A stretch of 64,000 nucleotides of DNA from Escherichia phage 172-1, in sequence record NC_028903.1. One strand, 5' to 3'. Shown here in pieces: positions 8,920-56,188 of this stretch. The notes under the pieces are model-generated. The model saw nothing but the letters and a program-made list of their open reading frames with translations. It was not told the DNA's origin and ran no database searches. A program made the position numbers and the translations under genes. Position 1 is the stretch's first letter, and each line of letters begins with the position of its first letter.

Positions 8920-9154
8920 CCATCTTCCTAACTTTCTTTCTTTCTACTAAAAGTAGCGCCATTGAACTTACTAGTCCTATTTCTTGGGCTTAACTTGCTA
9001 TCAGTGAACGATTCGACTACTTCACAAACGATCAGAACAAGTAAAGGAAATACTACAGCCATTGCCATCATTATTAAGATAATCATTTCTATCACTTCAA
9101 TCACTCAATCAATAGGCTTCAATTTACTACTACTTAACAAGGAAGACAAGCGAC

Positions 9155-29868: not shown

Positions 29869-30903
29869 ATGGCGTATGGAATATGGACAAGACCGGTCGG
29901 TCCGGGGCCAGCAGCACCTGCTGATATTTACATTGACAGTGGTAGCACATTCCCTCAGTTAAGAAACAGGGTCAGTGGTAATTTTTCTTTTAATGGTAAC
30001 ACATGTGATCTACCTATAAGCGGTTGGGATGGAAGTGGTCAGATAGTTGTAGTCCCAACAGGGTCTGTTGTTTGGGAGAGATACATACCTCCTAATGTAA
30101 CATCTGATGTGTATTGGCTAACGGATATATCTGTTATTAATAACTCAACCTTCAGAGTTACTATGGATTATAATGTAAACGGTTGGGTATTTGATATGGC
30201 TTTTAATGTATATCAAATATGGCCTAGAGCTAACAGGAACTATGGAATCACATTCTCCAACTCTGCTGACTATTTCTCAATCTCTGATTCTGGAGTTGTT
30301 GGTCAATGTATTTGGGCTTGGGAGGGTGACATAAATGGTGCTCTTCAAATACCAGATATTGGTGGTTTTGATATGAGCCGAGCAACTGTCTACGCGAATT
30401 GGAGTAACGGCGGAGCAGGTCTGCTATACAACCCATCCAATAGGGTTGTTTATGTGTACCAGAACAGGTCTCATGATAATGGTAACACAAACCAAACAGG
30501 GTACATTGGTGGTGTTAGGATTGCCGTCTTCTGTGATGGTTCGGGAGTACCAACCCACAATGGAGGTTTAAATATCTTTTCTCCAAATGGGTCTCAGTGT
30601 GTTTTTTCTACATATAGAACCCCTTTTAGTGTTGAGGGGTTTATGCCTATGAGTGGTGGTAACACATCTTTGGCCTATCCAATGATACCTCTATCTTATG
30701 GTGCTGGAGCAATAAGAGGTAAGGCTAGTGGTTGGTATTTTCAACACACAAGATCTCACATGATGAATGGCTCTTCTTTTGGTACAGGTTTCGGAAGGAT
30801 GATTTACTCTTGGAGTAGTCAATATGATTTAGGAGGGGGTGGTGCCCTCGGGTTAAGTATTCCAATATTAGATGCTAGAAAGATATTCAGGAGTATACAA
30901 TAA
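29869..30903 (+). CDS. tail-associated protein
   Basis: 344 aa; Gly/Ser/Asn-rich beta-type composition. Confidence 0.45.
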   Translation: MAYGIWTRPVGPGPAAPADIYIDSGSTFPQLRNRVSGNFSFNGNTCDLPISGWDGSGQIVVVPTGSVVWERYIPPNVTSDVYWLTDISVINNSTFRVTMDYNVNGWVFDMAFNVYQIWPRANRNYGITFSNSADYFSISDSGVVGQCIWAWEGDINGALQIPDIGGFDMSRATVYANWSNGGAGLLYNPSNRVVYVYQNRSHDNGNTNQTGYIGGVRIAVFCDGSGVPTHNGGLNIFSPNGSQCVFSTYRTPFSVEGFMPMSGGNTSLAYPMIPLSYGAGAIRGKASGWYFQHTRSHMMNGSSFGTGFGRMIYSWSSQYDLGGGGALGLSIPILDARKIFRSIQ

Positions 30904-42510: not shown

Positions 42511-43794
<1,284 letters not shown>

Positions 43795-44042: not shown

Positions 44043-44065
44043 AAAAAAGCCACCCGAAGGTGGCT
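44043..44065 (-). terminator. rho-independent terminator after SSB gene
   Basis: Perfect AGCCACC / GGTGGCT stem, cgaa loop, U6 on minus transcript. Confidence 0.6.
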
Positions 44066-44087: not shown

Positions 44088-44834
44088 TTAGAATGGGCTA
44101 TCGTTGTCGTCTTCATAAGTAGAAGCAGGTTCTTTATCAATCGTAGGGATTGAAGGAGTAGCTTCTTTCTGTTCTGTTTCAGAAGCACGAGTAATTTCAC
44201 GACCAGCCAGAGGCATGTTCTTAGCGTCATTAGCTTGAGTAAGCAGGTTGCGCTGGAACGGGAACATCAGTTGATAGGATGCTACGTTCTCATCGGTTTC
44301 TGCATACGGTTCGAAGAATACCAGAGGACTGCGAGCTTCACCAACTGCTGCACGATATTTGGTTGGGATTGGAGAAATGGTTTTGATGGAGTTTTTAACT
44401 TCACCAGCTTTATTAGTGTAAGAGTTAACCAGAATGTTAACAGGCTGACCTAACAGCACATCCTTAAACCAAGACAGATCACCTTTCAGTGCTTGAATGC
44501 TTGGGTCAATCATCTTGCAGAGATCAAGGATACCAGAGTTCTTAGCTCGTGGGTTTACATCATAGCTCTTGAACTGGCAAGCAGGACGTGGTTCTAATGC
44601 CTTACCATCGGAATCTTTACCAGTAGCATCAACACCAATCAGCTCGAAAGCCAAATCCATACGGAAAGCTGGATTCTTAGGAGTTACTGCTTTGGTCTTC
44701 GGGTCAATCCAAGGGTCACGATTGTGAACACCCAAACCTACTACACGAACAATACGTGCTTCGTACTCACCATCAGGGATGACGTCGTAGTTGGATTTAC
44801 GGGAAGAAGTTGCGATAGTTGGAATCATAGACAT
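44088..44834 (-). CDS. T7 gp2.5-like single-stranded DNA-binding protein
   Basis: 248 aa; acidic C-terminal tail ending YEDDNDSPF (terminal Phe as in gp2.5). Confidence 0.55.
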   Translation of the reverse strand: MSMIPTIATSSRKSNYDVIPDGEYEARIVRVVGLGVHNRDPWIDPKTKAVTPKNPAFRMDLAFELIGVDATGKDSDGKALEPRPACQFKSYDVNPRAKNSGILDLCKMIDPSIQALKGDLSWFKDVLLGQPVNILVNSYTNKAGEVKNSIKTISPIPTKYRAAVGEARSPLVFFEPYAETDENVASYQLMFPFQRNLLTQANDAKNMPLAGREITRASETEQKEATPSIPTIDKEPASTYEDDNDSPF

Positions 44835-44893
44835 ATTTTAATTTCCTTATTTAATTTGAAAGATTGTTGCTCTCTTTGAGCGGTTATGTATAG

Positions 44894-44902
44894 TATACAT
44901 TA
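44894..44902 (-). promoter_or_regulatory. phage promoter core TAATGTATA (leftward, upstream of SSB)
   Basis: Read on minus strand ~60 nt upstream of ATG 44834. Confidence 0.45.
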
Positions 44903-44943
44903 CGCTTATACCGATAAGAGTACTATATAATATAAGTATCTTT

Positions 44944-44976
44944 GGTAGTAGATATAACACACTAGTAATGTATATA
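44944..44976 (+). promoter_or_regulatory. phage promoter (GGTAGTAG-N14-TAATGTATATA), rightward into ORF-free AT-rich region
   Basis: Core at 44966-44976; no plus-strand ORF downstream. Confidence 0.45.
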
Positions 44977-45380
44977 TTGTATAGCTGATAAAGTTATTGC
45001 AGGCTTGTATATTGGGCAATTCACAGAATCCCTTGCAAGTACCGAAGGGCAGGAGCCACCTGCGAGATAAAAATAGAGAATTAAGGAATCCTTGATTTAG
45101 GTTGTAGGGACTCCTAGGGACTTTGATTCTCTATTTAAAAGAATATTAATTACTTACTACCTAAATAATTAACTAACTTACTTAAACCAAATTCAAGAAT
45201 GATAGATAAAAAGATTATTCCTAAGAAAGCTAAGAAGTAAAGTATATAAGTTACCATTCAAGTAAACCTTTAAAGTTAGATTGTTCTACTATCCTCTGAT
45301 AACGAAGATTAGAATCAGCTTGTTTCTTTAACATCTCATTATATTTATCTCTGATAGAGTCTTTATAAACTACAGGTTCT

Positions 45381-56155: not shown

Positions 56156-56188
56156 TATATACATTTGAGAGTTACCATATCTACTACC
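56156..56188 (-). promoter_or_regulatory. phage promoter (GGTAGTAG-N14-AAATGTATATA, leftward)
   Basis: Same upstream octamer and spacing as 44944..44976; 39 nt upstream of ATG 56117. Confidence 0.5.

Follow-up and report, generated by a model that had tools for sequence, protein, structure and literature searches.

A candidate small RNA gene downstream of a predicted gp36-type promoter in phiEco32-like coliphages

Results

Genes and known promoters at the locus

The window, by which we mean the whole stretch of 64,000 nucleotides that was analysed, is, judged by its sequence, that of a phiEco32-like coliphage (Kuravirus). The 801 bases around the feature described here were 95-98% identical to Escherichia phages NJ01, SU10, 1-6af and others, and the 97 phage records that matched the region were all phiEco32-like podophages (Kuravirus and sister genera of Gordonclarkvirinae). 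The late genes occupy the plus strand between about 10 and 40 kb, and elsewhere the minus strand carries the middle and early genes. Close to the feature lie the genes for the sigma factor gp36, for the gene 40 homologue and for the homologue of phi32_41 (gene 41 below), the product of which is a 35-aa hydrophobic peptide (Table 1). The DNA polymerase gene is about 3 kb from the feature. A canonical intrinsic terminator (44048-44065, minus strand; AGCCACC-TTCG-GGTGGCT followed by a T run) was observed directly 3' of gene 40, between this gene and the downstream spanin-like genes.

For comparison, a core alignment of 18 annotated relatives (loci L002-L019) was used and extended by divergent copies (L042, L048, L050 and L052) located upstream of homologues of gene 40 whose protein identity was 71-81%; the copy in L047 was truncated by the contig end. 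The RNA element described below was found in all 24 relatives examined from the 97 matching phage records.

Promoters used by the host RNAP together with the phage sigma factor gp36 have a single consensus element, TAATGTATA, with start sites 6-8 bp downstream (PMC8948821, PMC4331800). Six such promoters have been published, namely the late promoters P6, P13 and P26 and the middle promoters P40, P58 and P68 (PMC8948821 Table S3). In a 2025 cryo-EM study of RNAP-gp36-gp79 on P68, AATGTA was positioned at -14 to -9 and the C-terminal domain of gp36 read the -37G and, at -34, the T opposite the A; R187 and Y186 of gp36 contact the -37/-34 bases, and mutating those bases abolished transcription (PMC12276001). 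The 64 kb of the window contained six exact copies of TAATGTATA compared to 0.71 expected, and none of the shuffles reached six. Six gp36 promoters are reportedly mentioned in the abstract of the 2012 phiEco32 paper as well. Scanning for sigma-70 and terminator consensus sequences gave counts that were not above those of shuffles.

Table 1. Genes, gp36 promoters and parts of the candidate RNA, with their positions in the window
Feature	Position	Strand	Remarks
P6 (late)	11052	+	sequence TAATGTAGA
P13 (late)	18571	+	
P26 (late)	35438	+	
Sigma factor gene gp36	42890-43534	-	
Gene 40 homologue (phi32_40)	44088-44834	-	OB-fold SSB-like protein; served by leftward promoter P40
P40 (middle)	44894	-	
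-10-type element TAATGTATA of P40	44894-44902	-	exact match; listed in PMC8948821 Table S3
-35-type box TGGTAGTAGATAT of the rightward promoter	44943-44955	+	G at -37 is 44944; A at -34 is 44947
-10-type element TAATGTATA of the rightward promoter	44966-44974	+	exact match; AATGTA at 44967-72, i.e. -14 to -9
H1 hairpin	44981-44997	+	AUAGCU-GAUAA-AGUUAU; starts at the predicted +1
Single-stranded junction	44997-45001	+	UUGCA; invariant in 19 of 19 distinct sequences
Middle module	45002-45043	+	closing helix (G22-C63, G23-C62, then CUUGUA/UUGCAAG with UA bulge) encloses a variable insert
GAAGGG, H2 and linker	45044-45071	+	invariant GAAGGG; H2 GCAGG-AGCCA-CCUGC at 45049-45063; invariant A-rich linker GAGAUAAA
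H3, long 3' hairpin	45072-45135	+	15-pair lower stem, two invariant G.U, AA bulge, UCC/GGA helix, two apical UAGGGACU repeats
Gene phi32_41 homologue	45150-45257	-	35 codons; PHROG 24970; annotated phi32_41 in phiEco32
P58 (middle)	51456	-	
P68 (middle)	56158	-	sequence AAATGTATA

The promoter pair

A preliminary description of this DNA had assigned a leftward promoter to the SSB gene, and this promoter is identical to the published gp36 middle promoter P40, which precedes gene 40. Its -10 element was invariant in 18 of 18 relatives. The predicted +1 of P40 lies at about 44887, giving a 5' UTR of 44887 to 44835. A small conserved hairpin (GCUC-AAAGA-GAGC; 44866-44882, minus strand) was observed in this UTR, a few nucleotides past the predicted +1.

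A rightward promoter had been proposed next to it. This promoter is absent from the published list of six, and both determinants of gp36 promoters were present in it and conserved, that is, tAATGTAtA with AATGTA at -14 to -9 (PMC8948821, PMC12276001) and, as on P68, G at -37 together with A at -34. Its predicted +1 is at about 44981, corresponding to about 36719 in the phiEco32 record EU330206. The rightward promoter reads GGTAGTAGATAT-N10-TAATGTATA and P68 reads GGTAGTAGATAT-N10-AAATGTATA (window 56177-56188, minus strand). Both promoters have the identical 12-mer as -35 box in the same register, the same 10-nt spacer length and the same -37G and -34A, while their -10 elements are one base apart. 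The 11-mer GGTAGTAGATA was found without mismatch at only two sites in the window, P68 and the rightward promoter. In four reference genomes of IMG/VR the box-plus-motif pattern likewise occurred exactly twice per genome, at these two promoters, and the scan of IMG/VR with this pattern added few new relatives.

Across the 18 relatives of the kuravirus group, the rightward -10 element was 100% and the -35 box 94% identical, whereas the 10-nt spacer was 54% and the stretch toward P40 71% identical. Conserved boxes around a drifting spacer are what selection on the two promoter boxes would leave. The core GGTAGT (starting at 44944) was retained in all relatives, more distant copies pairing it with AATGAA or AATGTA, and the core of both boxes was retained in 24 of 24 relatives examined. 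In one respect the promoter departs from the known ones, which precede middle or late protein-coding genes: P68 is followed by a protein-coding gene with a ribosome-binding site, whereas the rightward promoter opposes the whole middle-gene cluster, all neighbouring genes being on the minus strand and no conserved plus-strand ORF lying downstream. The rightward promoter is most likely a seventh, unlisted gp36 promoter of the P68 type.

In phages EcM-vB1 (L013, 1586-1729) and ES17 (L015, 1582-1725) an insertion of about 145 bp, with an annotated 47-codon minus-strand CDS, lies between P40 and the rightward promoter at a point corresponding to about 44942 of the window. Both promoters are retained despite the insertion, thus tight back-to-back coupling is not needed. 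In the metagenomic kuravirus L054 (about 8925-8945) the rightward promoter has TAATATATA in place of TAATGTATA, so that A replaces the contacted -11G, which may be due to a sequencing error or may mark a natural promoter-down variant.

Architecture of the candidate RNA

From the predicted +1 at 44981, a noncoding stretch of about 155 nt extends to 45135, and the element measures 144-186 nt among relatives. The hairpin H1 started at +1 in every variant, with a 6-nt discriminator before it and always with A at +1. Seven different H1 stems were found among the full-length copies and an eighth in the truncated L047 (AUAGCU/AGUUAU, AUAGCU/AGCUAU, AUAGUU/AACUAU, AGAGUUA/UAACUCU, AUAGA/UCUAU, ACAUC/GAUGU, AUCUCU/AGAGGU and ACAGU/ACUGU), and four of the six pairs showed changes on both sides.

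In the middle module, at least three versions of the insert were found; the window has variant A, to which variants B and C are unrelated in sequence. The first pair of the closing helix was G-C, C-G or U-A among relatives (alignment columns 24/91). Inside the inserts, compensatory changes were found in comparisons of L048 with L052 and of ECBP2 with MN05; examples of such changes in the inserts are UCCUU/AGGGA to UCGUC/GGCGA and CCG/CGG to CUG/CAG. Ordinary variation in H2 was confined to C/A in the loop (AGMCA), the exception being a single compensatory swap in L052, from A-U to U-A.

The 3' end of the element is formed by H3. An inverted repeat around a duplicated TAGGGAC had been described here with arms of 7 bp; the repeat is present at that place, but it is longer, namely AAATAGAGAAT/ATTCTCTATTT, which gives about 15 pairs as RNA including G.U. 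The TAGGGACT duplication is likewise present; in the repeat search it was direct repeat D5 (TAGGGAC(T) at 45105-45112 and 45115-45122), and the inverted repeat was I5, with 14-nt arms (45071-84 and 45123-36). Both repeats in H3 changed together from AGGGAC to AGGAC in one phage group. Their pyrimidine partner was either UCCUU or UCCCU, which is consistent with pairing to the repeats; the changes in repeat and partner were uncoupled, the partner being UCCUU in every AGGAC sequence.

Combinations of H1 version, insert (A, B or C) and repeat (AGGGAC or AGGAC) differed among the phages (loci L002-L052, window 44981-45136); MN05 and SR02 have H1 in common and differ in the insert. These mixed combinations imply recombination at the invariant junctions UUGCA and GAAGGG.

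Covariation, strand and conservation

The structure was tested with 13 distinct sequences and 41 pairs, using 500 column shuffles and partners slid by 1-3 columns as controls. Standard pairs were found in 96.4% of the pair cells of the 13 sequences. Changes on both sides occurred in 12 of the 41 pairs compared to 6.6 +/- 1.0 in the shuffles, none of the 500 reaching 12, and the covariation score was 0.214 compared to 0.067 in the shuffles (0 of 500) and 0.02-0.04 in the slid controls. The signal came from H1, the closing helix and H2. As H3 never varies, it carries no covariation evidence, and its invariance could equally stem from a role at the DNA level.

G.U cells valid on the plus strand only numbered 43, whereas four were valid on the minus strand only, and a derived A-to-G change in XT18 makes one more G.U. 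Three observations point to the plus strand as that of the RNA: the validity of the G.U pairs, the way the promoter faces and its fixed junction with H1. The folding-energy z-scores ranged from -1 to -3 and did not separate the strands, the minus strand being equal or better in some variants; being modest and without strand separation, they contribute nothing. A short rightward noncoding RNA had been the second choice of the preliminary description, and it is this reading that gains support from covariation in three helices, the hairpin at +1 and the G.U pairs valid on the plus strand only.

The mean identity of the 3' half (45043-45136) was 96.6%, compared to 88.8% for the coding sequence of gene 40. 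In divergent phages, the third codon positions of gene 40 were about 62% identical and the 3' domain 93-99%. Over the 1.9 kb compared, 45042-45135 (H2, linker and H3) was the most conserved of 1808 94-nt windows, level with the best coding segment, and this apparent conservation could be inflated by phage mosaicism. Conservation ends just past H3, and the adjoining 45140-45220, with gene 41, is missing from about half of the relatives.

Coding capacity and the AT-rich stretch

The region had been called free of ORFs. For the plus strand this holds in the sense that no ORF is conserved: a 32-codon ORF with a TTG start (44997-45095) was broken in relatives by 1- and 2-nt indels and module swaps. 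A minus-strand ORF (44906 to 45019) was also rejected as coding, being disrupted in relatives by indels and module swaps. A conserved ORF is excluded on both strands of the element by the module swaps and by the 1-2 nt indels within its best-conserved part. In phage 4E8 (L060; 317-511, minus strand) a 'hypothetical protein' CDS, g037c, extends over both promoters and over the 5' half of the element, and is probably a spurious call.

The minus strand further downstream is not free of genes. The AT-rich stretch noted earlier is real, 45130-45250 having 20.7% GC and falling in the lowest 0.07% of 121-nt windows, but the 35-codon gene 41 lies here, so that most of the stretch is coding. Gene 41 was absent in 8 of the 18 relatives that keep the promoter and the element: ECBP2, Paul, XT18, TH34, TH43, Bas86, NC-B and E20-1 (window 45140-45220 against L004, L011, L012, L014 and L016-L019). 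In the phages without gene 41, a longer phosphoesterase gene ends right past H3.

The 3' hairpin and possible targets

On the minus strand, H3 lies 14 nt past the stop of gene 41 in the window, and 14-38 nt past the stop of the preceding gene overall; it is followed on that strand by the invariant UAUUUUUAUC. A scan for intrinsic terminators did not flag H3 and flagged only the hairpin after gene 40 (44065 to 44048, minus strand). Canonical terminators have a short G+C-rich stem and a U run, whereas H3 is long and A+U-rich, with 2-4 U on the plus strand. The 3' Rho-independent terminator with a U tail that marks Hfq-type sRNAs was not found either, the sequences following H3 being UUUAAAAG, UUAAAAUC, UUUUAAAC and AAUUAAAAC. 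A crude scan of 119 phage translation-initiation regions for trans targets, in which accessibility was ignored, gave a best duplex of -44 kcal/mol compared to -42.9 +/- 4.1 for shuffled RNA, and no phage mRNA stood out as a target.

Distribution and database searches

A covariance model built from the alignment detected a single copy in the window (44981-45138, 185 bits) and also recognised the element in every close relative. No copy was found with this model in the more distant L044-L046, in which the identity of gene 40 is 64-70% and the intergenic region is 146 bp. The upstream region of L044-L046 (bases about 2355-2500) has neither TAATGTATA nor the RNA, and contains a conserved block, GCTAGCATA(T/C)CAAAGCTAAGCT(A/C)AGCTATATGCTT, which is perhaps a promoter region of different sigma specificity.

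Searching 4227 Rfam models at a permissive threshold gave no family for the element, the two snoRNA chance hits (E values 1 and 8.8) both being outside it, and ARAGORN identified neither a tRNA nor a tmRNA. No match to the RNA was found by BLAST against all complete E. coli genomes and plasmids, a search in which short complementarity is undetectable; a host or plasmid homologue is thereby excluded. The exact 23-mer of linker and H3 was found in genome and metagenome collections only in kuravirus-like contigs, in addition to one unrelated chance hit in a Planctomycetota MAG. Neither the rightward promoter nor the RNA was annotated in any of the 21 records examined from the 97 matching phage records. 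In the searchable literature no such RNA or antisense promoter was reported for these phages, and an earlier mention may exist. The interval appears to hold a new RNA family of the phage-encoded small RNA kind, restricted to one clade and present in single copy.

Discussion

The interval is probably an unannotated small RNA gene, in which a gp36 promoter would direct the synthesis of a structured noncoding RNA of about 155 nt that most likely acts in trans. The computational case for the element being real is strong. In the middle phase, host RNAP with gp36, aided by gp79, would bind the P68-type promoter and start rightward at about 44981, heading away from the P40/gene 40 unit. The 5'-terminal hairpin H1 most likely shields the 5' end of the RNA or stabilises the RNA, and H3 most likely fixes the 3' end, either through processing or as a weak intrinsic terminator. 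On the minus strand, H3 probably stops leftward transcription coming from the upstream operon, which would make gene 40 reliant on P40. As for its mode of action, the RNA most likely uses the invariant 3' half to act on a partner constant among these phages; a near-invariant 3' half beside exchangeable inserts suggests recognition by an unvarying partner, and our guess is that a host factor would be the simplest candidate.

One parallel is found in phage antisense small RNAs such as the OOP RNA of phage lambda, which is 77 nt long, overlaps the 3' end of cII and has a canonical terminator. Like OOP, the candidate RNA is short, has its own promoter, runs opposite to the surrounding operon in a region of replication genes and ends in a hairpin. 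Unlike OOP, which has about half its length, the candidate RNA overlaps no coding sequence, provided that it ends at H3; its four helices form a modular structure in which the 3' half is invariant, it has no U tail, and there is no sequence or Rfam relationship between the two.

It is unlikely that the RNA is a core component of phage development and not a minor regulator, serving as a structured primer or organiser RNA of a replication origin, as ColE1 RNA II does, or as a decoy whose invariant 3' half captures a conserved host protein. Either role would explain why the 3' half is as conserved as the best-conserved coding DNA, and this half contains four invariant GGA/Shine-Dalgarno-like motifs.

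An improbable explanation is that the RNA acts in cis as an antisense RNA. Pairing with leftward read-through transcripts could tune gene 40 through RNase III cleavage or transcriptional interference, or the RNA could be an antitoxin-like partner of gene 41 in the style of par/Fst of pAD1. Such a role is compatible with the layout: the RNA would be fully complementary to any leftward transcript passing H3, its direction converges with that of gene 41, which encodes a short hydrophobic peptide and has its stop codon 14 nt from H3, and structured antisense RNAs with 5' hairpins are typical of cis-antisense and antitoxin-type systems. In par (Fst/RNA II) of pAD1, a peptide gene and a small RNA are convergent on a shared hairpin with direct repeats, and here too a small hydrophobic peptide gene and a small RNA converge on a shared hairpin bearing repeats. 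However, type I systems of this kind show co-occurrence and complementarity of RNA and peptide gene, whereas here about half of the relatives have the RNA, nearly unchanged, and no peptide gene. Moreover, no complementarity to the peptide initiation region was found; this region was outside the twelve best duplex scores, none of which beat shuffled RNA. Perfect complementarity in cis requires no conservation of sequence, yet the 3' half is almost invariant. A cis-antisense role leaves both the invariance and the retention of the RNA without gene 41 unexplained; it overlaps with the small RNA gene and does not exclude it.

The preliminary description had preferred a transcription-activated origin like that of T7, in which the rightward gp36 transcript would open the AT-rich DNA or prime synthesis, with the conserved element as origin core. 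We consider this quite unlikely. The primary origin of T7 consists of the promoters phi1.1A/B and an AT-rich region, and in T4 ori(uvsY) and ori(34) a middle promoter is combined with a DNA-unwinding element. The locus resembles them in that a phage-specific promoter is aimed at AT-rich DNA, here the most AT-rich 121 nt of the window, and adjoins the OB-fold SSB-like gene with the DNA polymerase gene about 3 kb off. The near-invariant 3' domain, with direct repeats spaced by 10 bp and several palindromes, could be protein-binding DNA, and structured primer RNAs such as ColE1 RNA II exist. Unlike an unwinding region that is a conserved part of the origin, however, the AT-rich DNA of this locus is a minus-strand gene, and 8 of the 18 relatives retaining promoter and element have lost it; moreover, a structured segment of about 155 nt with a long terminal hairpin lies between promoter and AT-rich DNA. 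Covariation, the hairpin at +1 and the plus-only G.U pairs indicate that a folded RNA, and not duplex DNA, is under selection. GC skew in the window tracks gene orientation, reaching its extremes near 10 kb and near 40 kb without any signal at 45 kb, and more distant relatives with the same replication genes are without the element. Since the AT-rich DNA is coding and dispensable, the GC skew uninformative and selection directed at RNA structure, the origin reading is unsupported.

That the locus is only a DNA- or mRNA-level element, with the H3 region as terminator or processing region of the leftward operon or as a site for a phage protein, and the rightward TAATGTATA as a by-product of the P40 region giving no functional RNA, is very unlikely: H3 does follow a stop codon on the minus strand and is itself followed there by the invariant UAUUUUUAUC, Watson-Crick covariation is strand-neutral and the minus strand folds equally well or better in some variants, but the two conserved boxes keep a fixed distance to H1, in contrast to the drifting spacer and P40-side region, H1 begins at +1 in every variant, the G.U pairs do not hold on the minus strand (43 plus-only cells compared to 4 minus-only), and the 145-bp insertion in ES17 and EcM-vB1 parts the promoters with neither being lost.

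For phage-encoded sigma factors, phiEco32 serves as the reference system, and descriptions of its programme list six gp36 promoters, each before a protein gene. If the small RNA gene is real, a seventh promoter of the P68 type and a conserved structured RNA would bring an RNA player into the gp36 programme. The rightward promoter would also be a natural test of the -37/-34 contacts seen by cryo-EM, and many of the relatives bearing the RNA are candidates for phage therapy.

Two minor observations concern other gp36-type sequences in the window. The late promoters P13 and P26 (18571 and 35438) have another upstream box in common, TAAGACCTA, at about -38 to -30; together with the GGTAGTAGATAT box shared by P68 and the rightward promoter, this suggests class-specific -35 regions in middle and late gp36 promoters. 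Within the late gene at 29869-30903, an exact TAATGTATA at 30204 and a one-mismatch copy, TAATGTAAA, at 30171 are found 33 nt apart (window 30171-30212, plus strand). The copy at 30204 has G at -37, but G instead of A at -34, and the two copies may be an internal late promoter or a chance occurrence.
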